A stretch of DNA of 64,000 bases from NCBI GenBank assembly GCA_017469845.1, contig JAFUFP010000045.1, forward strand, positions 90,567 to 154,566, written 5' to 3'. This document shows positions 4,138 through 64,000 of this stretch, in pieces; within the stretch, counting starts at the first letter, position 1, and every line of letters begins with the position of its first letter. This stretch comes from Bacteroidales bacterium. GTDB lineage: Bacteria; Bacteroidota; Bacteroidia; Bacteroidales; UBA932. The notes below the pieces were generated by a model. It was not told where the DNA came from and made no database searches. It saw only the letters and a list, made by a program, of their open reading frames with translations. The translations under genes were made by a program, and so were the position numbers.

Positions 4138-4830
4138 ATGACTTCATACAATGCCAGAATAGAGATATGCTGCCCTTCAGCGGAAGCCGCATTCGCGGCA
4201 GAGAAAGCGAGGGCAAACCGGATAGAACTTTGCAGGAATCTTGAAACCGGAGGATTGACCCCGTCCGAAGGGGACATAATGAAGGTGGCCAATATCCTCG
4301 ACATCCCGGTCAATGTCCTCATCCGCCCCAGGGAAGGGACTTTCGTGTACAATGAAGAGGAAGTCTTCCAAATGCTGAAATCCATCTACTTCTGCGGAAT
4401 CACCGGAGCGGTCAACGGAGTCGTTATCGGAGCCCTCACGGAAGACGGGAATGTCGATGTGGATGCCTGCCGGAAAATGATCGCACAGGCGCGGGAATTC
4501 AGAATGGAAGTGACGTTCCATAGGGCCATAGATGAACCCGGGGACATCTTCGCAAGACTTCAGGACGTAATCAACTTGGGTGTCGACAGGGTGCTCTCCT
4601 CAGGAGGAGCTCCCACGGCCGAACAAGGTGCCGAGACCCTCGCCGAAATGGTCAAACTCTCCGGAAAGAGGGTATCGGTGATGCCGGGATGCGGAGTGAC
4701 CCCAGAAAACGCCTCCCGTATCCTCGATATTACCAAGGCACATGAAATCCACGGCTCCAGGATCGGAATCATCGACGTGCTCCATCCCAGAGGGAACCAG
4801 CCATCCAAAAAGAAAAAGAAGAAAGCCTAG
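4138..4830 (+). CDS. cutC: CutC-family protein
   Basis: RIELC..L..GGLTPS, VLIRPREG.F.Y, TFHRAID and RVLSSGG motifs. Confidence 0.9.
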   Translation: MTSYNARIEICCPSAEAAFAAEKARANRIELCRNLETGGLTPSEGDIMKVANILDIPVNVLIRPREGTFVYNEEEVFQMLKSIYFCGITGAVNGVVIGALTEDGNVDVDACRKMIAQAREFRMEVTFHRAIDEPGDIFARLQDVINLGVDRVLSSGGAPTAEQGAETLAEMVKLSGKRVSVMPGCGVTPENASRILDITKAHEIHGSRIGIIDVLHPRGNQPSKKKKKKA

Positions 4831-5855
4831 CGGACAGACTCAAGGAAAGCCGCCAGCTCCGTAAAGAAAACGTCACGGTAAGGTTTTCCGAGGGTGTCAT
4901 TCCCGTAGGGTTCCCTCCGGAATCCCCATCCGTGTCCGCCGGCGGGATAGATGTGCATCTGGGCGGGGACATTCTTCTCCTTCAGAGCCTCGAAATACAG
5001 TATGCTGTTCTTCGGCGGAACGGTGGTGTCGTTCTCGCTAAGGGCCAAGAAGGTCGGCGGCACGCCTTCATGCACCTGGTACTGCAGGGAATATTTTTTG
5101 ACCTGGGCGTTATACCTGGCCATCCTCTCTTCGTACTCTTCATCGGAGATTCCCTTGGCGAAATAGGATTCCTTCTCCCCTATGAGATTGTCATGGGTCC
5201 CCTGATGGGTAAGACCTGCCTCCAAAGAGATCACCGGATAGATGAGGACGGAGAAATCCGGTCTCGTCACCTCGTCGTCATAATACACCGAAGCGGTTGC
5301 GGCGAGATGTCCTCCCGCAGAGAATCCCATGATTCCCATGCTTTTTATCCCCCACTCCTCCGCATGGTGGCGGCAGTAGCGGAAAGCGTTCTGCACGTCA
5401 TGCAGAGGAATCGCGTCATTGGTTTTCGGGAGACGGTACTTAACGACGCAGACCGTTATTCCCTTGTCGACAAGCCAATCCGCGACGCAGCTTCCCTCGT
5501 TCCACATCGACACCATGAAATATCCCCCGCCGGGACATACTACGACCATCTGTCCGTTGGGCTTCTTGGGGAAATAAAGGTCCAGGCACGCACCGTTACC
5601 TATATTATATGTGTCACCGTATCCGGGGGAAGTTTCTTCTCCCCGAAGACCGTTGTCAACCAGAGGGCCGGATGTGATCTTCACTCCGTTTTCGGTTATA
5701 CCTTCATCAACCTCCTGACCCTTAGGATACAGAAGGACGGTCCTGGAAGGTTTGACAGGTTCTTTCTTTTTGGGGGCAGCGCCTGAAGCGATACCGAAGA
5801 AGAGGGAAACTGACATGGCTATCAAAAAAGCGAGATGATGACGATGATTTTTCAT
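4827..5855 (-). CDS. Secreted alpha/beta hydrolase (carbohydrate esterase-like)
   Basis: Likely start ATG 5855 followed by a signal peptide; CPGGGY oxyanion loop, GFSAGG nucleophile, ENDTTV (Asp) and GGHGWG (His). Confidence 0.85.
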   Translation of the reverse strand: MKNHRHHLAFLIAMSVSLFFGIASGAAPKKKEPVKPSRTVLLYPKGQEVDEGITENGVKITSGPLVDNGLRGEETSPGYGDTYNIGNGACLDLYFPKKPNGQMVVVCPGGGYFMVSMWNEGSCVADWLVDKGITVCVVKYRLPKTNDAIPLHDVQNAFRYCRHHAEEWGIKSMGIMGFSAGGHLAATASVYYDDEVTRPDFSVLIYPVISLEAGLTHQGTHDNLIGEKESYFAKGISDEEYEERMARYNAQVKKYSLQYQVHEGVPPTFLALSENDTTVPPKNSILYFEALKEKNVPAQMHIYPAGGHGWGFRREPYGNDTLGKPYRDVFFTELAAFLESVR

Positions 5856-28598: not shown

Positions 28599-29501
28599 AT
28601 GACAGCGAAAACACTCGTTCAGATATTATCCTCATTGATGCTGGCACTTTCACCCGTAAAATCCGAAGGCATGACAAAAACCAGGATCCACATTCCCCGG
28701 GAGGACGGACATTCCCTCAAGGTACTCATCTACCGTCCCGACTCCCCTTCCTCCGCTCCCGCCACCGGAGTGCTCTGGATCCACGGAGGAGGATACATAA
28801 CCGGAATGGCCTCGATGGTCGGCTGGCTGGGACGTCCAGCCCCTCTTGTGGAGAAATACGGAGCCGTGGTCATAAGCCCAGGATACCGCCTCTCCCCGAG
28901 AGGAAGATACCCTGTAGCCCTGGAGGACTGCTACGAAGCGCTCCGCTACATGGTAACCCATGCCGATGAACTGGGGATAAGGAAGGATCAGATATTCGTC
29001 GGAGGTGAAAGTGCGGGAGGAGGCCTATGCGCCGCCCTTTGCCTTCTGGCAAGGGACCGGGGAGAATTCAACATCGCATTCCAGATGCCCCTTTACCCGA
29101 TGATCGACGACCGCGACACCCCTTCCTCCAAGGACAATCACAACAAGGTCTGGAACACGAAAACGAACCATTTCGGATGGAAGCGATACCTTGGCCCCCT
29201 ATACGGTACCGACGATGTCCCCGCCTACGCCGCTCCGGCAAGGGAAACCGACCTTAGGGGCCTTCCTCCCGCATACACCTTCGTATGCACGGATGAGCCC
29301 TTCTACTGCGAAACCCTCACATTCGTTGAGAACCTCCGCTCGGCCGGGATTGAAGCGGGACTCGACGTCTACGAAGGGCTGTACCACGCCTTCGACATGC
29401 TCGCCCCGAAAAGGGAAGAATCAATAAAAGCCGCCGAGAACTTCGAAAAGGCCTTCCTCCATGCCGTAGAGAACTACTTCGCCCCGAACGGTAAGAACTG
29501 A
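28599..29501 (+). CDS. HSL-family (family IV) esterase/lipase
   Basis: HGGG oxyanion motif, GESAGG, YPMIDDR and LYHAFD. Confidence 0.88.
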   Translation: MTAKTLVQILSSLMLALSPVKSEGMTKTRIHIPREDGHSLKVLIYRPDSPSSAPATGVLWIHGGGYITGMASMVGWLGRPAPLVEKYGAVVISPGYRLSPRGRYPVALEDCYEALRYMVTHADELGIRKDQIFVGGESAGGGLCAALCLLARDRGEFNIAFQMPLYPMIDDRDTPSSKDNHNKVWNTKTNHFGWKRYLGPLYGTDDVPAYAAPARETDLRGLPPAYTFVCTDEPFYCETLTFVENLRSAGIEAGLDVYEGLYHAFDMLAPKREESIKAAENFEKAFLHAVENYFAPNGKN

Positions 29502-29593: not shown

Positions 29594-31081
29594 TCAGTCA
29601 TCGGTCTCACCCATCACGATAATGAGGTGGTCTCCCTTCTGGAGCACCATGCTTCCGTGCGGGACAAGGAACTTGTCGTCCCTTTTCACCATCACGACCC
29701 TGATTTCGTGGGGAAGATTGAGGTCACGCAGAGTTTCCCCGTCGACAAGTTCACCTTCCGAGAGCGTGTGGTCACGGAGCATTCCCATCTCCTCGGGAAT
29801 CTCCATACCGAAAGTCTCGACTTCCGGATCCTCGTCATAGCTGAGTTTGAGGAAATCCGCAGCCTTGGAAAGCGACATTCCCTGCACCATCAAAGAGAAC
29901 AGTGTGATGCAGAAGACGATGTTGAAGATCTCGGTCGACCCCTCTATGCCGGCGACAACCGGACACAGGGCGAAAAGGATTGGACCGGCTCCCTTGAGTC
30001 CGACCCATGAAACCAGGAGCTTCGCTCTCACTGAGATGCCCTTGAACGGAAGAAGGCAAAGGAAAACGCTTGCAGGACGCGCCACGAGCATCATGAAAAC
30101 TCCGATGATGAGAGCGGGAAGGATGATTCCGCCCATCTGGGAAGGACGTGCAAGGAGTCCCAGGACGAGGAACATCAGAAGCTGCATCAACCACGTCATT
30201 CCGTCAAAGAAGCTGAGGATGTAATTCTTCCTTCTGAGCTCAGCCTTGTTGCCGATGATGATGGCCGCGATATAGAGGGAAAGGAGTCCGTTTCCGTCAA
30301 GTACTGAAGCAATACCGTTGGCGAAGAATCCGATGCTGAGGATCAGCACCGAATAGAGCGAGCTGCTCGAAAGGTTCACCTTGTTGAGGAGATAGGTCGC
30401 CCCGTATCCCACCAGCATACCCACTGCGAATCCCACCACCATCTGAAGGAAGAGGACCCATATTCCGGTAAGGGCCATAGCCCCCATGCCGACGGCCTTC
30501 GTCGATGAAAGGACCTGCACCAGAATGATGGTGAGGACGTAGGCCATGGGGTCATTACTTCCGGATTCAAGCTCCAGCATCGGACCCAGGTTCTCCCTGA
30601 GGTGCATCTTCTTTCCCCTGAGGATCGAGAAGACGGAAGCCGAGTCGGTTGATGACATCACCGCCGACAGGAGGAAACATCCCAAAATGGTGGAACCGAT
30701 GGAACCTATCATTCCGGGAAGAACCAACCAGATGAACAGACCCGTCAGAACGACCGTAAGGAAGACTCCCAGGGTCGACAGGAGCACTCCCTGCTTCATG
30801 ACGGGTTTGACATCCTTCAGGGAGGTTTCCAAACCGCCGCTGAACAGGATCACCGTCATAGCGAAATGTCCTATCGACTCGGCGATCTCGTAATCCTGGA
30901 ACTTGAGTCCGATACCGTCGGCACCCACCACCATTCCGAGGATCAGGAACAGCAGCAGGGACGGGGTACCGAACTTGTTGCCCACCTTCGTGGTCAGGAT
31001 GGCGAAGAACACGAGGATCGACGCTATCAGCAGAAGGTGGTCCGAAAGCAGGTTTACCGAGAATATCGAAAGCGGCAGCAT
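29594..31081 (-). CDS. cvrA: K+/H+ antiporter (CPA1, NhaP2/CvrA type) with C-terminal TrkA-C/RCK-like domain
   Basis: Multiple hydrophobic helices; PSLLLFL..GM..G.DG, ILFSGGL.T, SSTDSASVF, LELESGSNDPMA, GLKGA.PI; C-terminal VP.GS..LQKGD. Confidence 0.9.
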   Translation of the reverse strand: MLPLSIFSVNLLSDHLLLIASILVFFAILTTKVGNKFGTPSLLLFLILGMVVGADGIGLKFQDYEIAESIGHFAMTVILFSGGLETSLKDVKPVMKQGVLLSTLGVFLTVVLTGLFIWLVLPGMIGSIGSTILGCFLLSAVMSSTDSASVFSILRGKKMHLRENLGPMLELESGSNDPMAYVLTIILVQVLSSTKAVGMGAMALTGIWVLFLQMVVGFAVGMLVGYGATYLLNKVNLSSSSLYSVLILSIGFFANGIASVLDGNGLLSLYIAAIIIGNKAELRRKNYILSFFDGMTWLMQLLMFLVLGLLARPSQMGGIILPALIIGVFMMLVARPASVFLCLLPFKGISVRAKLLVSWVGLKGAGPILFALCPVVAGIEGSTEIFNIVFCITLFSLMVQGMSLSKAADFLKLSYDEDPEVETFGMEIPEEMGMLRDHTLSEGELVDGETLRDLNLPHEIRVVMVKRDDKFLVPHGSMVLQKGDHLIIVMGETDD

Positions 31082-31387
31082 CTAGTCTTCGATTTGGAAC
31101 AGGTTCAGGAAACCGGTCATCTGGAAGACGCTGCGGATTTCGTTGTTGATGCTTCTTACGATCACTTTGCCTCCCTTCTCGGCGGCGGCTTTCCTCAGCG
31201 ACAGGAAAATCCTGAGGCCGGAACTGGAGATGTATGACAGTTCCTTGCAGTCAAGGATTATTGTCCCTGCGGCATCCTCCTTCAAAGGTTCAAGCTGCTC
31301 AGCGACATTCTGTGCTGCGGGAGTGTCGAGGCGGCCGTTAAGTTTGGCCGTAACTTCTTGATTCTTTTTGGTTATTGATACTAACAT
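31082..31387 (-). CDS. STAS-domain anti-sigma-factor antagonist (SpoIIAA/RsbV-like)
   Basis: GRLDT and DCKELSYISSSGLR with the phosphoacceptor Ser region; VFQMTGF. Confidence 0.92.
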   Translation of the reverse strand: MLVSITKKNQEVTAKLNGRLDTPAAQNVAEQLEPLKEDAAGTIILDCKELSYISSSGLRIFLSLRKAAAEKGGKVIVRSINNEIRSVFQMTGFLNLFQIED

Positions 31388-31392
31388 ATCGC

Positions 31393-33468
31393 TTAAATGT
31401 TTTTAGTCATCGATAAAATGTTCTTTCCGTCATCACTCCTCCGGTAATTTACCGTATCCATGATGTTGCGCACGAGGAATATTCCCAACCCTCCGACGGG
31501 ACGTTCCTCCACGCCCAAAGTCGTATCCGCAACGGGGACCTGGGTAGGGTCGAAAGGAATTCCGCTGTCCGTGATGATGAATTCGAGCGACTTTTTGCGC
31601 ATGATCGCTTCGATGTCCACCAGGCCGTCGGATCCTTTCGGATAAGCGTACATGATCACGTTGGTAACCGCCTCCTCGAGAGCAAGATTAATGCCCATCG
31701 CGAGAGACTGTTCGATTTTCATCTCGTCAGCTATCGTCTCCACGAAATCAGCCAATTGAGGGATCTGCTGAATGTCATTGTGGAGGATCAGATGGCGTTC
31801 AGATTCTTCAGGGTCGATTTTGTTCATATAATGGATGAATAACATTGTGAGGTCGTCACTTTGGGGTGCAGTTCCCACGAATTTAGTCATGGCCGTCTCG
31901 AGGGCTTCGAGATGCTCCTCGGCAGTACGGCGGATGGAAAGGAGATCCTTGACCCTCTCCTCACCGAAAAGGCGGTGGTCCGCATCCTCGGCTTCGGTAA
32001 GGCCGTCAGTATAAAGGAAAATCGAATCATCAAAGGAAAGGTCTGTTTCCTGTTCCTTGAAGTTCATGCCCGGCATGACGCCGATCGGAAGATTCGGTTC
32101 CACGGGAAGAGCCCCGACGGTACCTTTGAGGATGAACGGAGCGTTGTGACCGGCGTTGCAGTAACGTAGGTGACCGGTCCTGAGATCCAACACACCGCAG
32201 AAGAACGTGACGAACATGTTGTTCTCGTTCGTTCCCGTCATGGAGTCGTTGATGGCGGAGACAATCCTCTGGGGGCTCTTTTCATGTGCGGATACCGTAC
32301 GGAAAAGGCTCCTGGTGACCGCCATCAGAAGCGATGCGGGCACACCCTTGCCGCTGACGTCACCGATGCAGAAGAAGAGTCTCTCCTCCTTTATGAAGAA
32401 GTCATACAGGTCGCCTCCCACCTCCTTGGCCGGATACATCGCGGCTGCGAGGTCCAGATCCGTCCTCTCCGGGAAAGGAGGGAAGATCTTGGGAAGCATG
32501 GACATCTGTATTTCGCTGGCGATCTTAAGTTCGCTTTCTATCTTTTCCTTGCTGGCTTCGACCTGACGGAGCTTCGCCTGCTCCTTGATGGTACGGCTGA
32601 GGATGAACCACAGCAGCAAAAGTCCCAGGATCTGGAGGAGGATCACCCTGTGCCCCAACCTGTTGATGCTCTCGAAAACTTCATCCTGCGGGATGACGAT
32701 CGACATCGTCCAACCGGTGTCGGACATCTCGGCCTCCTGACGGAGAGCCTTTCCACTGACCACAGAGTCGGGGGAAGCGGCCAGAAGACGGCCTTCACGG
32801 CTGGTTATCTTGCTGAACGAATTGGGGTACAGCCGCACATTCTCGACAAGAGAGGAAAGGAACGAGAGGGAAACGTCTGTCCCGAGGACGGCGGCCATCT
32901 TCCCGTCCAGGTCGTAGACGGGTTCGGCATAAGTCACCACCATGGACTTTCCGCCGCTGTTGTCGAAGTAGGGTTCACTCCATGAGCCGATGCCGGAATC
33001 GAAGACTTTCTTGAACCAGGGCATGGACAGATAGTCATGCTGCTCGGAGCCGATTTCCTCGTCTACGATTTCACCGCCTTCCGAGCGGGACGAAGAGGGC
33101 TCGAACCAGTATCCCATCTGGGGATAGTAGCTGGGAGAGAAAGCCATCGCCACATCAGCGATGTCGGGATTGGTGAAGAGCAACTGGTGGAAGAAGTCGT
33201 ACAGCTCGTCCGTGTCGTCGAGATGTTCCGTCATTACCCAAGCCATGTTCTTGGTGGCGGTCTCGACATTCTCCATGATGCTCTCTATCTTCAGACTGGA
33301 GACCATCAGCTCGTTCTTTGCCCTGAGCTCGGCTTCGTTCTTGAGGTCCCTGCGGGCGAAAAAGAACTGGGTCAGCGTTGTCGCTTCCAGCATGACGGCG
33401 GCCAACAGCACCATGAAAAGACCACGGCGCCTGTATACCTTAGCAGTTGCTGAAAGTTTCTCGCTCAT
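31393..33468 (-). CDS. Membrane sensor: TM-Cache-TM, SpoIIE/PP2C phosphatase and C-terminal RsbW-like HATPase kinase
   Basis: W(S)EPYFD Cache motif; AKEVGGDLYD, GDVSGKG, YTDGLTEA and QSDDLT PP2C motifs; LEEAVTNV, D.G.PFDP and GGLG GHKL motifs. Confidence 0.9.
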   Translation of the reverse strand: MSEKLSATAKVYRRRGLFMVLLAAVMLEATTLTQFFFARRDLKNEAELRAKNELMVSSLKIESIMENVETATKNMAWVMTEHLDDTDELYDFFHQLLFTNPDIADVAMAFSPSYYPQMGYWFEPSSSRSEGGEIVDEEIGSEQHDYLSMPWFKKVFDSGIGSWSEPYFDNSGGKSMVVTYAEPVYDLDGKMAAVLGTDVSLSFLSSLVENVRLYPNSFSKITSREGRLLAASPDSVVSGKALRQEAEMSDTGWTMSIVIPQDEVFESINRLGHRVILLQILGLLLLWFILSRTIKEQAKLRQVEASKEKIESELKIASEIQMSMLPKIFPPFPERTDLDLAAAMYPAKEVGGDLYDFFIKEERLFFCIGDVSGKGVPASLLMAVTRSLFRTVSAHEKSPQRIVSAINDSMTGTNENNMFVTFFCGVLDLRTGHLRYCNAGHNAPFILKGTVGALPVEPNLPIGVMPGMNFKEQETDLSFDDSIFLYTDGLTEAEDADHRLFGEERVKDLLSIRRTAEEHLEALETAMTKFVGTAPQSDDLTMLFIHYMNKIDPEESERHLILHNDIQQIPQLADFVETIADEMKIEQSLAMGINLALEEAVTNVIMYAYPKGSDGLVDIEAIMRKKSLEFIITDSGIPFDPTQVPVADTTLGVEERPVGGLGIFLVRNIMDTVNYRRSDDGKNILSMTKNI

Positions 33469-33474
33469 AATTCT

Positions 33475-34311
33475 TTATCCAAAAAACACCCTATCGATCA
33501 CATCGTGGAATTCCTTCCTCCTGCAGCCGCAGTCCCTGTCGATCATGATCGTCTTGAGGGCAGCATACGGAAGGATCAGCCTGTCCACTTCCTCCATCGT
33601 GAGGTCCGTACCGAAATACTCCGGAACGAAAGCGTCCCAGAAAGCGGAAGCGGTGGCGTTGTCCACGTGCAGATATTCCTTATTGAATTCTTCGCCACTC
33701 AATTTGCAGCAAAGATACAACATCCCGAGGTCAAAATACGGATGGCCGTATCCGAAATCGCCCAAATCTATGAAATATTTCTCCCCTCCGACGAAAATAG
33801 CGTTTCCGAAATGAAGGTCGCCGTGGAGGGCGGTATCGGAATCGGGGGCGTCGATGATGAACCTGGAAAGGCGGTCCTTTTCCCGGGGAGTGAAATAAGG
33901 GCTTTCGCCCAGAAGGCGGAGATACCGTACCTTCACGGACTCGAACTCGGACATGTTCACATGGACGGCATGCAGATGCTTGCACATCACCGCGAAATCC
34001 ACCGCGTATTCCGCCACCTTTTCGGGATGGTCACCGCAGGCCCTGGCGAATGAAGTCTTGCCGACAATCCGGCGGAAGCGGATTCCGTAGCGGCCGTCTT
34101 CAGTGACGACGTAGTCCCCGGGCTCGGGAGTGGGAACCCCCAAGTCATAGACCTTCCTTGCCAGCAGCATTTCATCAAGGGGCTGATTGATCATCCCCGG
34201 GAAATACAGTTTCAGCATCACGGAAGGATCCTTCCTGTGATTGTAGCTTTCGCCGTTGGCCCCGCCGCCGGCGAGGACGTAATCGTCAATCGAGATTTTT
34301 ATCGGTTCCAT
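33475..34311 (-). CDS. APH/choline-kinase-fold phosphotransferase
   Basis: GGGANG glycine loop, MLKLY lysine, HGDLHFGN catalytic loop and IDLGD metal-binding motif. Confidence 0.85.
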   Translation of the reverse strand: MEPIKISIDDYVLAGGGANGESYNHRKDPSVMLKLYFPGMINQPLDEMLLARKVYDLGVPTPEPGDYVVTEDGRYGIRFRRIVGKTSFARACGDHPEKVAEYAVDFAVMCKHLHAVHVNMSEFESVKVRYLRLLGESPYFTPREKDRLSRFIIDAPDSDTALHGDLHFGNAIFVGGEKYFIDLGDFGYGHPYFDLGMLYLCCKLSGEEFNKEYLHVDNATASAFWDAFVPEYFGTDLTMEEVDRLILPYAALKTIMIDRDCGCRRKEFHDVIDRVFFG

Positions 34312-34885
34312 TTCCGAAGACTTTGTCAATCAGATCCGTAAATTCCTCATATGCCGCCGTACCGGACAATTCCCCGAGGGATTTGGCCAGTCCCCTGTAA
34401 TGCCACTCGTGGTCAAAGCGGTTCTTGGTGTGGAAGATGTTCCAAAGTTCATCCCCGACAACAGCGAAATCCCTCGCTATAGCCCTCATGTTGGAGAGTT
34501 TGTCCCCGAGGGCCACCATCTTGACGTCGAGTGAAGAAGCCGCGAGCCTTTCGATGGCGGCGAGTTTCCGGCGTCTCCAGCTTTCTTCCTTGGTCTCCCC
34601 TTCGATGAAAACGTCGCTTTCACCGTAGACCAGATCGGCGACCCTGTCCCCGAATTCCCGCCTTATGTCTTCAACCGTCACGGACGTATCTTCAACCGTG
34701 TCGTGCAGAGCGGCGGCTGCCATCAGCTCCTGGTCCTTGGTCAAAGTCGAGACGATCTCCATCGCCTCCATCGGATGGACGATGTACGGTATCCCCTTGC
34801 CGCGGCGTTCCGTCCCGGTGTGGGCCTTGACCGCGAAGAGGATCGCCCTGTCAAGAAGTTCGGTATTGATGGGTCCGTTGGGCAT
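34286..34885 (-). CDS. HD-domain small alarmone hydrolase (Mesh1/SAH-like)
   Basis: FAVKAH...R, PYIVHP, LHDTVEDT and DKLSN motifs of the RelA/SpoT hydrolase domain. Confidence 0.88.
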   Translation of the reverse strand: MPNGPINTELLDRAILFAVKAHTGTERRGKGIPYIVHPMEAMEIVSTLTKDQELMAAAALHDTVEDTSVTVEDIRREFGDRVADLVYGESDVFIEGETKEESWRRRKLAAIERLAASSLDVKMVALGDKLSNMRAIARDFAVVGDELWNIFHTKNRFDHEWHYRGLAKSLGELSGTAAYEEFTDLIDKVFGNGTDKNLD

Positions 34886-34888
34886 GAT

Positions 34889-35953
34889 CTATTCCTCCTG
34901 ATTCATGAAAGGCATCTCCATCGCCTGTGAAACAAGCATCTGGGCCATCATTTCATTGGCTTCCGAAGGACCGTTCAAAGTGTCGAACATGTAACGGATC
35001 CCCGCCTTGCCGCCTCCCCGCTTGAGGATGCAGGCTATGCACAGGTTCTGGGGACCGATCGAAGAGGATACTATGTCGAGGTCGGTAAGTCCTATCTGGT
35101 AGCAGGCTATCTGGTATGCCCCTTCCGAATAATCCTTTATCAGGCGGGAGATGTCCCCCAGAGTTGAGCAATTCAGCATCTGGAAGACCTTCAGATAAGG
35201 CATCAGCGACACTTCCTGGATCTCCGCCTGGTTCATCGACGCGATCCTGCGGTTGAGGTTGCCGAAAGGATTCATGCCGAGGTAGCTGCGGAAGGTGTCT
35301 CCGTCGAGAGGTGCGTCATCAAGGTCACCGGAGGCCACGAGAGCCTGGACTTTGCGGCGGTAATCGGTGAGTTCGCTGCGGATTTTGCTGAACTCCTCGT
35401 CGACGAGTTCGAGCATTCCGGCAAGGCGGCTCATAGAGCGGCGGTAACGTTTGGGGATTTCAACTCCGCTCTTGTAACCGGTATCGTGGTTCATGTTCGC
35501 CCAGGAGTGCTGGAGCACGGTCCTCATCTGGATTTCGAACTTGTAGGGGAAGCTCTTCACCGAGCACACGTAGTGCAGGGAAAGATATCCGAAACTGTCT
35601 ATTTCAAGGAGCTTCCGCTTATCCACGGAGTTCTTCCAGTCGACGGTGAAAAGACGTTCCACAGCCGAAGCGACCTTGTCCACATCGTCGGTGTAGAATG
35701 TTATGATCCTGAGGCCCAGGATATCGGTTATGTCGGCGAGGGAAGAATATTTCTGACCCTTCAGTTCAAGTTTGCCCGCAAGGGAAGATTCGGTCTTCAC
35801 CCTTGATTCCAACGAAGCCACATTGACCCCGGCCTTGTCAAGAAGGGAGCGGAGTCGTTTGACGAGAATCTTTTCCTCCTTTTTGAAAAGGGGAAGATTA
35901 TTCCTGTACTCGTCCATTATGGACTGGCAATGGGCATCCAGAACTGGTTTCAT
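34889..35953 (-). CDS. Small alarmone synthetase (RelA/SpoT synthetase domain) with C-terminal extension
   Basis: SRVK..SSL..K, DILGLRI, GYLSLHY and EIQMRT..QH.WA...HD.GYK motifs. Confidence 0.9.
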   Translation of the reverse strand: MKPVLDAHCQSIMDEYRNNLPLFKKEEKILVKRLRSLLDKAGVNVASLESRVKTESSLAGKLELKGQKYSSLADITDILGLRIITFYTDDVDKVASAVERLFTVDWKNSVDKRKLLEIDSFGYLSLHYVCSVKSFPYKFEIQMRTVLQHSWANMNHDTGYKSGVEIPKRYRRSMSRLAGMLELVDEEFSKIRSELTDYRRKVQALVASGDLDDAPLDGDTFRSYLGMNPFGNLNRRIASMNQAEIQEVSLMPYLKVFQMLNCSTLGDISRLIKDYSEGAYQIACYQIGLTDLDIVSSSIGPQNLCIACILKRGGGKAGIRYMFDTLNGPSEANEMMAQMLVSQAMEMPFMNQEE

Positions 35954-36304
35954 AGAAAATAATAGCATATTTAATCAAAGGTATGAAATATTTCCGGGAT
36001 TCCGGCTTTTCCGAAGGAAAAACGTTATTTCCATAGCCGAAAGGACCACCGGTAAACGGGTTGACGTTCCCTTCGAAGGCAAAATACAATAGACCAAGGC
36101 CGGTATTCCGGGAAGTGTACGAAAGAATCAATCCCATCGGCATAGGGGGAACACTCCAGAGATGAATTTCAGATACGGCACCGGAAAAAACGAATCGGAA
36201 CATCCTTGAAAGGAGTTGTACGCCGATACAGAAAATGAAGAAAATTTTTCTCGATTTTTGCAAAACAGACATTCGGCTAAACATCTAATATATAAACATA
36301 TAAA

Positions 36305-36360
36305 CCTCAAATCAAAGATCAAATGTTCTGCCAGAATCGCTAAAAAAATCAAAATCTGGC
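36305..36360 (+). repeat. 56-bp direct repeat, copy 1
   Basis: cctcaaatcaaagatcaaatgttctgccagaatcgctaaaaaaatcaaaatctggc; 54/56 identical to 37955..38010. Confidence 0.9.
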
Positions 36361-36405
36361 ACAACATTCCTCTAAAATTCTTACATTTGTAAAAAGTCAC
36401 GAGCC

Positions 36406-37830
36406 ATGGATAAAATTATCGGAAGAGACATAGAACTTTCAAGAATCGAAAGATACTTCAGCAGCGGCAAAAGCGAATTCGTAGCGCTGTATGGTAGAAG
36501 ACGTGTAGGTAAAACTTCTCTGATAAGATACTATTTCAAAGACAAGTTTGATTTCTTCGCCAGCGGAGTACTGGACGGCAATAAAGAGGACCAGAAAAAC
36601 GCATTCATCAAAGCTCTTGAAAAATACGGATACTCCGGTCCCACACCTCAGAACTGGAATCAGGCTTTTGAAGCTCTCGGTTCCATAATCGAGAAGAAAA
36701 AAAGGAAAAAACGCTGCGTCATCTTCATTGATGAAATTTCATGTTTCGATTTTGAATATTCCAACTTTGTCAAAGAACTCGGCATATTCTGGAATACCAA
36801 GGCTTCTTGGTACGACAATGTGTTTCTTATCATCTGCGGCTCGGCGACATCGTGGATGATCAGAAACGTCATTGACAATCGCGGAGGACTCCATAAACGA
36901 TGCACACGGGAAATGCACCTGAAACCGTTCAACCTGTACAAATCTGAAATGTACTTCAAGGCAAAGCATTACAAATGGGACAGGATGACAATCCTGCAAT
37001 TGTATCTTGCTTTGGGCGGAATACCATACTATTTTTCCTTGCTCGATCCGGGAAAGAGTGCAGCAGAGAATATCGACATGCTGTTCTTCTCAACCGATGC
37101 TGATCTTAAGGACGAATTCAGACGGCTGTATTCATCTCTTTTCAAAACTCCCGAAAAATATATGGATATAATAAGACTCCTTTCAAGAAGCAAAGAGGGT
37201 CTGACCAGAAAAGAAATTTCCTCAGCGATAAAAACCAGTACAGGTGACGATCTGACCAAAATGTTGAAAGATTTGATTTACAGCGACCTTATCATTTACA
37301 GCAACAATGGCAAAAAAAAGACTTCAGGCATATACCGCATCATAGATTTCTTCACAATTTTCCACCTGACGTTCTGCGAAGGAACCATAACAGACCGTGC
37401 ATATTGGCGACACACACTCAACACTCCCGCACAAAACACATGGTACGGTCTGGCATTTGAGCGTCTGTGCCTTTACCATATATGGGAAATCATTCAGTCA
37501 TTGAGATTGGATACAATACTCACTACATATTATTCATGGAGAAGTGCAGGTGAGTATCCTGCGCAGATTGACATGATTATTGACAGGGCTGATGGAATTA
37601 CCGACATATGCGAGATGAAGTACTCGAGGTATGAGTACATCCAGGATGCCGAAGAAAGCAATAAATTGTATAGACGGATTGAGAATTTTCGGAAAGCGGG
37701 CAAAAACAAAAAAACCATACGGACAGTTCTTGTCACCACACAAGGTTTGGCAAAGGGAGAACATAGTGATGATTTTTCAAAAGTACTGACACTTAAAGAC
37801 CTTTTTATAGAAAACACGGAAGAATCTTAA
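36406..37830 (+). CDS. AAA/P-loop ATPase ('archaeal ATPase' type) with possible C-terminal PD-(D/E)XK-like domain
   Basis: YGRRRVGKT Walker A, IFIDE Walker B, ICGS; C-terminal QIDMIIDR.D....ICEMKY; AT-rich; -7 box TACATTTG at 36382-36389. Confidence 0.88.
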   Translation: MDKIIGRDIELSRIERYFSSGKSEFVALYGRRRVGKTSLIRYYFKDKFDFFASGVLDGNKEDQKNAFIKALEKYGYSGPTPQNWNQAFEALGSIIEKKKRKKRCVIFIDEISCFDFEYSNFVKELGIFWNTKASWYDNVFLIICGSATSWMIRNVIDNRGGLHKRCTREMHLKPFNLYKSEMYFKAKHYKWDRMTILQLYLALGGIPYYFSLLDPGKSAAENIDMLFFSTDADLKDEFRRLYSSLFKTPEKYMDIIRLLSRSKEGLTRKEISSAIKTSTGDDLTKMLKDLIYSDLIIYSNNGKKKTSGIYRIIDFFTIFHLTFCEGTITDRAYWRHTLNTPAQNTWYGLAFERLCLYHIWEIIQSLRLDTILTTYYSWRSAGEYPAQIDMIIDRADGITDICEMKYSRYEYIQDAEESNKLYRRIENFRKAGKNKKTIRTVLVTTQGLAKGEHSDDFSKVLTLKDLFIENTEES

Positions 37831-37954
37831 GACCGGGAACACCTTGGTCTTGAATAAAAATTCACTTTATTCTTTTTACAAAAATCAATATCCTCTCTTC
37901 TCCGTTTTCTGCAAAAAACAATAAATACAAATCTTTGATTGACACAGAAATAAT

Positions 37955-38010
37955 CCTCAAATCAAAGATCAAATGTTCTGCCGGAATCGCTAAAAAAATC
38001 AAAATCCGGC
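37955..38010 (+). repeat. 56-bp direct repeat, copy 2
   Basis: cctcaaatcaaagatcaaatgttctgccggaatcgctaaaaaaatcaaaatccggc. Confidence 0.9.
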
Positions 38011-63678: not shown

Positions 63679-64000
63679 CTATTTGGGGAACATCCTTATG
63701 GCGAGCATGGTAAGGTCATCACTCTGCTCGGCGTCACCGACGAAGAGCGAGACATTGCCTCCCACTTTCGCGACAATTTCCTGAGCGGAAAGGTCGGTCG
63801 TGATTCCGGAAAGGACCCTATGGAGTCTGGCTTCACCGTAAAGTGAGGAATCGCTTCTGGTCGCTTCCGTGAGACCGTCGGTATAAAGGAAAAGGGTTTC
63901 ACCGGCCTTAAGGGATGACTTCTGCAGGGTGTAACTCCAATCGGGGATGATACCGATGGCGACATTCGGGTCGGCGTCCATGAAGATAGGCTTCCCTTCG
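63679..64000 (-). CDS. Partial SpoIIE/PP2C phosphatase (C-terminus only; 5' part lies outside the window)
   Basis: Frame open to the window edge (EGKPIFMDADPN...); LFLYTDGLTEA and QSDDLTML motifs. Confidence 0.85.
   Translation of the reverse strand, partial: EGKPIFMDADPNVAIGIIPDWSYTLQKSSLKAGETLFLYTDGLTEATRSDSSLYGEARLHRVLSGITTDLSAQEIVAKVGGNVSLFVGDAEQSDDLTMLAIRMFPK

Follow-up and report, generated by a model that had tools for sequence, protein, structure and literature searches.

Six tightly packed open reading frames (ORFs) lie on the minus strand at positions 29594-35953 of a 64,000-nucleotide (nt) stretch of DNA from a rumen Bacteroidales bacterium (lineage UBA932). This stretch, termed the window, corresponds to positions 90,567-154,566 of contig JAFUFP010000045.1 in assembly GCA_017469845.1, and window coordinates are counted from its first letter. 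The genes encode a small alarmone synthetase (SAS), a small alarmone hydrolase (SAH), a kinase of the APH fold, a membrane sensor, a STAS protein and a K+/H+ antiporter. An initial annotation of the sequence had proposed that these genes form one signaling unit. Our ORF analysis recovered all six genes in the order and at the coordinates given there, and each of its domain assignments was confirmed with Pfam and NCBIfam. The locus contains the following features:

35954-36405, minus strand: upstream intergenic region between divergent genes, probable promoter and leader of the operon
34889-35953, minus strand: SAS, 354 amino acids; ATG start, with an alternative ATG at 35968
34286-34885, minus strand: SAH, 199 amino acids; Pfam HD_4
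33475-34311, minus strand: APH-fold kinase, 278 amino acids; ATG start, with an upstream TTG at 34329
31393-33468, minus strand: membrane sensor (Cache-PP2C-RsbW, from Pfam), 691 amino acids
31082-31387, minus strand: STAS protein, 101 amino acids; Pfam STAS and TIGR00377
29594-31081, minus strand: CPA1-type K+/H+ antiporter, 495 amino acids; NF003716, Pfam Na_H_Exchanger and TrkA_C

From SAS to STAS, successive genes are separated by 3 nt, overlap by 26 nt, and are then separated by 6 nt and 5 nt. The antiporter start codon follows immediately on that of the STAS stop, and the junction reads TAGATG. All of these spacings, also reported earlier, were reproduced from the sequence. For the kinase, the ATG at 34311 is preferred over the TTG at 34329 because related kinases measure 277-278 amino acids. 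The cluster is bordered downstream by a convergent esterase gene (28599-29501, plus strand) and upstream by a divergent, AT-rich ATPase gene (36406-37830, plus strand). Promoter-like sites are present in the intergenic region at 35954-36405. Terminator-like sites are not in excess in the region (8 observed versus 8.4 in shuffled sequences), and Rfam searches of the region, including the operon leader, produced no match to a known RNA family or riboswitch.

Partner-switch proteins and antiporter

The sensor contains, in order, a transmembrane segment (residues 17-38), an MCP-like PDC/dCache domain, a second transmembrane segment (residues 271-295), a PP2C phosphatase domain of the SpoIIE type (Pfam SpoIIE, E=2.9e-49) and an RsbW-type serine kinase domain (HATPase_c_2, E=5.9e-25). 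The two hydrophobic segments bracket the Cache domain and thereby place it outside the cytoplasm. Residues D370, G373, D488, D538, D539, E598, N603, D634 and G659-G662 are invariant in 51 of 51 sequences, and both the metal-binding aspartates of the PP2C domain and the N-box and G-boxes of the kinase domain are intact. The STAS protein consists of a single domain. Alignment to SpoIIAA structures places its Ser55 at the phospho-acceptor Ser58 of SpoIIAA, and both Ser55 and the motif YISSSGLR are invariant in all 66 sequences.

The genome that contains the window is 100% complete. It encodes a single STAS domain, one strong HATPase_c_2 (RsbW-type) match, one SAS and one long RelA/SpoT homolog (RSH). 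It also encodes two sensor paralogs that have Cache and PP2C domains and lack the RsbW kinase domain:

Window 63682-64000, continuing past the window end (genome C52:154248-156206): kinase-less Cache-PP2C paralog 1
Genome C45:1134-3017: kinase-less Cache-PP2C paralog 2

By analogy with RsbP, which acts beside RsbU, these paralogs could be extra input phosphatases for the sole STAS protein. In three other genomes (L135, L137 and L138), SAH overlaps with a gene for such a kinase-less Cache-PP2C protein. In several lineages, a gene for an NMT1/THI5-like periplasmic binding protein lies immediately upstream of the sensor gene (L021/L022, ~4800-5770; L117:6577-7524; L119:6528-7523), and its product may act as a co-sensor by handing over the ligand.

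The antiporter scores 519.6 bits against NF003716 (potassium/proton antiporter), above the equivalog cut-off of 355, and has a C-terminal TrkA_C (RCK_C) domain (E=1.2e-11).

Alarmone enzymes and APH-fold kinase

The SAS protein matches Pfam RelA_SpoT (E=7.9e-19). Its top matches in the PDB, by sequence and by fold, are RelQ and RelP, which are the classical small synthetases that form (p)ppGpp. A RelQ/RelP-like catalytic domain occupies approximately residues 1-205 and is followed by a helical C-terminal domain of ~150 amino acids. Owing to this added domain, the protein (354 amino acids) exceeds the size of single-domain SAS proteins (about 200-250 amino acids). Fourteen residues (R51, K53, S57, K61, D77, G80, R82, G122, Y123, S125, H127, E140, Q142 and T145) are invariant in 81 of 81 orthologs, and they cover the ATP-binding, acceptor-binding and catalytic motifs. 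The predicted product of SAS is a (p)ppGpp-type nucleotide. The C-terminal domain is modeled with high confidence (predicted local distance difference test score, 92.7). However, a Foldseek search of the PDB with this tail found no fold match (best E=2.8) and therefore provided no functional lead. Nor does the model look like a sigma domain.

SAH matches Pfam HD_4 (E=1.5e-20). Residues H37, H61-D62, E65-D66, D128 and N132 are invariant in 69 of 69 sequences and form a complete His/HD/ED/Asp-Asn site, the same set of active-site residues as in RSH hydrolases.

The kinase matches Pfam APH (E=1.6e-16). It scores 206.8 bits against TIGR02172, below the cut-off of 228.2; relatives in which HD_4 and APH are fused, one of them in Fibrobacter sp., carry the TIGR02172 family name at NCBI. 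Residues K34, H163, D165, N170 and D182 are invariant in 70 of 70 sequences, and the protein has the Lys, HxDxxxxN and Asp motifs that are typical of active APH-fold enzymes. A PDB sequence search with the kinase returned solely weak matches to APH(3') enzymes, which therefore give no clue to its substrate. Because the kinase is fused to SAH in relatives, it presumably acts together with the hydrolase. The initial annotation had noted that the key catalytic motifs of the cluster look intact; among 51-81 orthologs, neither the catalytic nor the phospho-acceptor residues vary.

At ten examined loci, a P-loop gene of the Cytidylate_kin2 family (~214 amino acids, cytidylate-kinase-like) is an occasional seventh member directly after SAS. 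It resides between SAS and SAH in L010, L018, L046, L050, L062, L074 and L085, and after SAS in L004-L006.

Conserved linkage in several gene orders

The SAS family has more than 7,800 matches. The best 120 are 71-99% identical to the window's protein (mostly 71-79%) and measure ~353 amino acids. When one genome per species was scanned, SAS was found in 285 species, and the 80 best loci (69-76% identity) were analyzed. Nearly all derive from metagenome-assembled genomes of rumen or gut Bacteroidales. The loci were searched with the six window proteins, and linkage was counted where no less than 6.5 kb of sequence was available on each side, which was the case for 51 of them. The genes found beside SAS were:

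SAH: 44 of 51 loci
Kinase: 47 of 51 loci
Sensor: 45 of 51 loci
STAS: 47 of 51 loci
Antiporter: 32 of 51 loci
All six genes together: 26 of 51 loci

Sensor and STAS are both beside SAS at 45 of the 51 loci, and SAS and SAH are adjacent at 57 of the 80. The six-gene set occurs in at least five orders:

SAS-SAH-kinase-sensor-STAS-antiporter (as in the window)
SAS-SAH-kinase-antiporter-sensor-STAS
sensor-antiporter-STAS-(RmuC)-SAS-SAH-kinase
kinase-(NMT1)-sensor-antiporter-STAS-SAS-SAH
SAS-sensor-antiporter-STAS-SAH-kinase

Flanking genes vary between genomes. Adjacency counts reveal two sub-modules, SAS-SAH-kinase and sensor-STAS. In its 43 copies, the antiporter gene always adjoins the sensor or STAS gene or sits between the two (29 adjacencies to each), and the antiporter is an optional member of the cluster. 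The initial annotation had named a neighborhood survey as one of its checks. The genes do co-occur, variously ordered, fused or divided between loci, and this persistence rules out chance juxtaposition. The six-gene unit is nevertheless not universal, in that the antiporter is often missing and the alarmone trio and the switch are separable.

Distant relatives and split loci

SAS orthologs with 50-56% identity span four families of the order, and the gene set persists among them in altered forms. In distant orthologs, SAH and kinase are fused as a single ORF of 470 amino acids, and the RsbW kinase and the Cache-PP2C phosphatase are encoded by separate genes. One distant locus has the order RsbW-STAS-SAS-SAH. 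Near one SAS with 50% identity, STAS lies directly upstream and a CitMHS/TrkA_C transporter is adjacent. Minimal SAS-STAS pairs without any transporter are present in L093 and L097. The HD_4-APH fusion occurs widely (at least 562 protein clusters when grouped at 90% identity), and it adjoins SAS in a Fibrobacter genome. Locus L142 (7882-11997) encodes SAS, HD_4-APH, Y_phosphatase3, RsbW and STAS. Here, Y_phosphatase3, of the tyrosine-phosphatase family, occupies the place expected for PP2C and is possibly a non-homologous substitute for the switch phosphatase.

Some genomes split the set. In some of them SAS stands alone, and either SAH-kinase-sensor-STAS or sensor-STAS-antiporter-SAH resides at another locus. 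In the genome represented by L108, SAS-SAH-RsbW-PP2C is on one contig and STAS-antiporter is on another. An SAH ortholog is encoded elsewhere in eight of the nine genomes whose SAS cluster has no SAH, and in three of those genomes the relocated SAH is coupled to a kinase-less Cache-PP2C gene.

More distant SAS relatives (at most 45% identity) that were checked have no switch genes nearby, and linkage to the switch is thus confined to one SAS clade. One of these relatives, with 39% identity and the same length, is found in L088 (1772-7453) beside genes with TIR, LRR and RyR domains, a defense-like setting that differs from the surroundings of the window's cluster.

Where sensor-STAS pairs occur without SAS, an NMT1-like binding protein is often encoded upstream and other transporters downstream. 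The latter are CitMHS/TrkA_C proteins or ABC permeases fused to two to four SBP_bac_3 domains, an unusual architecture. Examples of SBP_bac_3-ABC permease fusions after STAS are L116:10244-13195, L121:10253-12418 and L124:3805-6024.

Phyletic distribution

Across broad samples SAS is uncommon, and among close relatives its occurrence is patchy. It was found in 10 of 401 genomes sampled across the phylum, 8 of 301 sampled across the order and 40 of 251 sampled from the organism's own family. The family sample includes 21 genomes of the organism's own genus; SAS and STAS are both present in 3 of these and both absent from the other 18. All STAS orthologs with at least 60% identity are within SAS-positive genomes. 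By manual count, SAS and STAS are at most 5 kb apart in ~33 of 39 SAS-positive family genomes.

Expression of the cluster

Metatranscriptome contigs that are 95-100% identical to the block were found in three runs from one rumen sample, which are low in depth and were assembled without strand information. Together these contigs span all six genes (29.6-35.9 kb). They cross the antiporter/STAS, sensor/kinase, kinase/SAH and SAH/SAS junctions; the STAS/sensor junction is crossed only in a fourth run whose labeling as RNA is doubtful. In the 20-kb stretch that was scanned, nearly all bins at 29.3-35.9 kb are covered. None of the three runs has contigs at 22.0-29.3 kb (7.3 kb downstream) or at 35.9-37.9 kb (2 kb upstream), and none covers the upstream intergenic region at 35954-36405. 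Carry-over of DNA is an unlikely source of the contigs, because the flanks are bare in three runs while the block is covered. The pattern is compatible with one transcription unit. Co-transcription, proposed earlier as a check on the operon, is thus borne out to the extent that contigs span the block, cross its junctions and end at its borders.

Search for a partner sigma factor

Known modules of this domain composition normally control an alternative sigma factor. The initial annotation noted that none is encoded here, and ORF, Pfam and NCBIfam annotation likewise revealed no sigma factor gene within the six-gene block. A target encoded elsewhere in the genome had been named as an observation that would count against the proposed unit. 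We therefore surveyed factors with Sigma70 region 3, a scope that leaves out extracytoplasmic function (ECF) sigma factors. Only one region-3 factor, the housekeeping one, is present in 25 of 28 cluster-bearing genomes. The window's own genome has two, the housekeeping factor and a paralog with 59% identity to it at C19:45522-46373 (outside the window). This paralog was not found in the other 40 genomes of the genus sample and occurs in only 3 of 44 other genomes tested. Of 28 cluster-bearing genomes, 25 lack it, among them the two further carriers in the genus. We rejected it as a hidden target because it does not co-occur with the cluster. Most carriers thus have no alternative region-3 sigma factor of the kind held by RsbW or SpoIIAB.

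Comparison with known systems

Partner switches that act on diguanylate cyclases have been described previously. They include HptB-HsbR-HsbA-HsbD and SiaABCD of Pseudomonas aeruginosa and BgrSTUWV-BgrR of Sinorhizobium meliloti (PMC5085249, PMC8457831). In these systems, STAS proteins control the cyclases HsbD and BgrR, and the STAS-like protein SiaC controls SiaD (PMC8457831, PMC5085249). The window's cluster resembles HsbA-HsbD, SiaABCD and BgrV-BgrR in combining a PP2C phosphatase, an RsbW-type kinase and a STAS or STAS-like protein, and the output of those systems is a second-messenger synthase rather than a sigma factor. Like HsbR, the sensor joins phosphatase and kinase in one protein. 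As with the cyclase switches, the switch genes are conserved beside the gene for a nucleotide-messenger synthase, also in divergent orthologs and in other families of the order. However, the synthase here is an RSH-family RelA_SpoT protein, and no GGDEF domain is encoded in the block. The block also adds a hydrolase of its own, an APH-fold kinase and, at many loci, a K+/H+ antiporter. Its input is a periplasmic Cache domain rather than a receiver domain, and binding of STAS to SAS is, in contrast to the cyclase systems, a prediction. Thus, switches without sigma factors that act on second-messenger synthases are already known. The window's cluster would operate along similar lines but falls outside that group: its synthase is of the RSH family, and three further proteins accompany it.

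All three domain families of the switch, and the correspondence of Ser55 with SpoIIAA Ser58, are shared with the Bacillus systems RsbU/RsbV/RsbW-SigB and SpoIIE/SpoIIAA/SpoIIAB-SigF. Several kinase-less Cache-PP2C paralogs could feed one STAS protein, as RsbU and RsbP feed RsbV. Unlike the Bacillus switches, the cluster lacks a sigma factor gene and unites kinase and phosphatase within one membrane protein.

The alarmone enzymes resemble RelQ/RelP and SAH enzymes of the Mesh1/PbcSpo type in synthetase fold, catalytic motifs and a complete HD/ED site. The adjacency of synthetase and hydrolase genes recalls the toxic SAS (toxSAS) pair FaRel-ATfaRel (PMC7229694). Unlike RelQ, RelP and toxSAS proteins, the window's SAS has a conserved tail of ~150 amino acids and is embedded in a signaling cluster. 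A further difference from toxSAS pairs is the fusion of SAH to a kinase in relatives, and the sequences give no sign of toxin behavior.

Transporters can also be regulated by STAS domains, as with MlaB on the ATPase MlaF and the cis STAS domain of SLC26/SulP proteins, and c-di-AMP gates the RCK_C domains of cation/proton antiporter and Ktr subunits (PMC7367683, PMC7132281, PMC5575661). The window's cluster resembles these systems in that a transporter gene directly adjoins STAS and its product bears RCK_C (TrkA_C). We know of no CPA1 antiporter under the control of a trans-acting, phosphorylatable STAS protein, and of no RCK_C domain that binds (p)ppGpp.

Literature searches for SAS or alarmones in combination with partner switching, STAS or anti-sigma antagonists, with or without Bacteroides, found no description of such a link. 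Neither the toxSAS paper (PMC7229694) nor a review of STAS-only proteins mentions a connection between alarmones and partner switches. This agrees with the earlier impression that no system of this composition has been described.

Neighboring ATPase gene

The divergent gene at 36406-37830 (plus strand) encodes an ATPase_2/AAA protein with a full-length PADLOC match to the defense candidate PDC-S27 (552 bits). It is bracketed by 82-nt direct repeats (36279-36360 and 37929-38010) that are 84% identical. Because of these flanking repeats, the gene resembles an inserted single-gene defense candidate.

Proposed function and alternatives

We propose, with a probability of roughly 60%, that the block is one signaling system in which a sigma-less partner switch is coupled to a dedicated alarmone module, and that the antiporter is an optional second target. 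Judging from domain content and conserved catalytic residues, the sensor would read a periplasmic ligand through its PDC/Cache domain, and its opposed PP2C phosphatase and RsbW-type kinase would set the phosphorylation state of Ser55 in STAS. One phospho-form of STAS would then bind and switch the alarmone enzymes, as suggested by gene linkage and by analogy with HsbA-HsbD, BgrV-BgrR and SiaC-SiaD. Because minimal SAS-STAS pairs exist, the likeliest target of STAS is SAS, perhaps through its C-terminal domain, and an outside signal would in this way alter the level of a (p)ppGpp-type nucleotide. SAH would remove the nucleotide made by SAS, and the APH-fold kinase presumably works alongside SAH. 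The antiporter might be a second target of STAS, comparable to MlaF under MlaB or to SLC26 transporters under their cis STAS domain. Alternatively, the nucleotide could bind its RCK_C domain, as c-di-AMP does with other RCK_C domains.

This proposal retains the core of the initial annotation, in which a periplasmic ligand sets the STAS phosphorylation state and the output is alarmone turnover and/or K+/H+ exchange rather than a sigma factor. Linkage, expression and sigma factor data support that core. Two points are changed: the antiporter is optional, and non-sigma switches on second messengers have precedents.

Several observations weigh against the proposal. SAS proteins with the tail also occur without any switch, namely in Olsenella, in a TIR/LRR neighborhood and at a Fibrobacter locus that ends 1.5 kb to one side, and the tail is therefore not a dedicated STAS-binding domain. 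Sensor-STAS pairs, in turn, are widespread and stand alone in SAS-negative genomes of the family, which marks the switch as a module of general use. At 19 of the 51 loci the antiporter is missing. Among the 16 genomes that have SAS-SAH-kinase-sensor-STAS without an adjacent antiporter, 11 lack an antiporter ortholog entirely, and just two encode it elsewhere. The RNA data are shallow and unstranded, and the sigma factor survey was restricted to region-3 factors. Finally, which way the signal flows and which proteins touch one another are inferred, and gene linkage is compatible with different binding partners of STAS and with an alarmone module that serves as the output or as the input of the switch.

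Other explanations were weighed as well. It is doubtful, but should be considered, that the real target of STAS is the transporter (the antiporter here, others in relatives). The alarmone trio would then simply share its expression or lie upstream of it, where a nucleotide might, for instance, modulate the sensor or RCK_C. Such a role would fit the constant position of the antiporter gene next to sensor or STAS, often between them, the TAGATG abutment, and the pairing of STAS and antiporter that survives separation from the rest in L108. SAS-free relatives with an ABC permease-SBP fusion or a CitMHS/TrkA_C transporter after STAS point in the same direction, and MlaB-MlaF provides a precedent (PMC7367683). 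However, the 19 loci without an antiporter, and the 11 of 16 genomes that keep the other five genes but have no antiporter at all, count against this explanation, as do the SAS-STAS pairs that lack any transporter.

An improbable explanation is that SAS and SAH are a toxSAS/antitoxin (type IV) or defense pair that lies by chance beside a signaling module. FaRel has a known SAH antitoxin (PMC7229694), and SAS and SAH are adjacent at most loci here, with SAH kept elsewhere in eight of nine genomes whose SAS has no neighboring SAH. The patchy distribution in the genus (3 of 21 genomes), the defense candidate gene next door and a weak match of the SAS catalytic core to PADLOC candidate PDC-S33 (50 bits) would also be in keeping with this explanation. 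Yet the SAS protein is nearest to the non-toxic RelQ and RelP, its identity remains at 69-76% over the best 80 loci from 285 species, and STAS and sensor are linked to it no less strongly than SAH is. In several genomes SAS and SAH are at separate loci, and SAH remains beside the switch. Flanking genes differ among genomes, and the unit is a five- to six-gene cluster instead of a two-gene toxin/antitoxin architecture. We set the defense reading aside because PADLOC offers merely the weak, domain-level match to SAS and no match to the other five proteins. It is likewise improbable that the cluster is a canonical partner switch whose RsbW domain holds a sigma factor encoded elsewhere, with the neighboring genes as its regulon or as operon companions. 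The domain set equals that of RsbU/RsbV/RsbW, the organism has a second sigma70-type paralog, and ECF factors lay beyond the survey. However, that paralog is missing from all 40 other genomes in the genus sample and from 25 of 28 carriers, and a membrane sensor bears the kinase domain as a fusion, in line with the non-sigma systems HsbR and SypE. Moreover, reshuffling of gene order that keeps six genes together is unexpected from mere regulon membership.

A bolder variant of the coupled-switch proposal, which we consider unlikely, is that SAS, SAH, the APH-fold kinase and sometimes the cytidylate-kinase-like protein make and process a non-canonical nucleotide messenger instead of plain (p)ppGpp. 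The level of this messenger would be governed from outside the cell via the phosphorylation state of STAS, and the messenger would gate ion transport by binding the antiporter's RCK_C domain. If true, gut anaerobes would possess in this cluster a new type of second-messenger circuit that is complete and self-contained.

Biological implications

The control of SAS enzymes by signals is poorly understood; they are known to be regulated transcriptionally and also allosterically, the latter by nucleotides or RNA. The cluster is a concrete candidate for a route from an extracellular signal to alarmone turnover. If our proposal is true, a sensor that acts through a phosphorylatable STAS protein on an SAS/SAH pair would be a new input route to stringent-response nucleotides, and non-sigma partner switching would extend from cyclic di-GMP (c-di-GMP) to the RSH family. 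The cluster also offers handles on the SAS tail domain, on the HD_4-APH fusion and on a possible alarmone or STAS link to K+/H+ exchange. With carriers in several hundred Bacteroidales species of the rumen and gut, and with expression in the rumen, the cluster may shape the responses of abundant fiber-degrading anaerobes to their surroundings.

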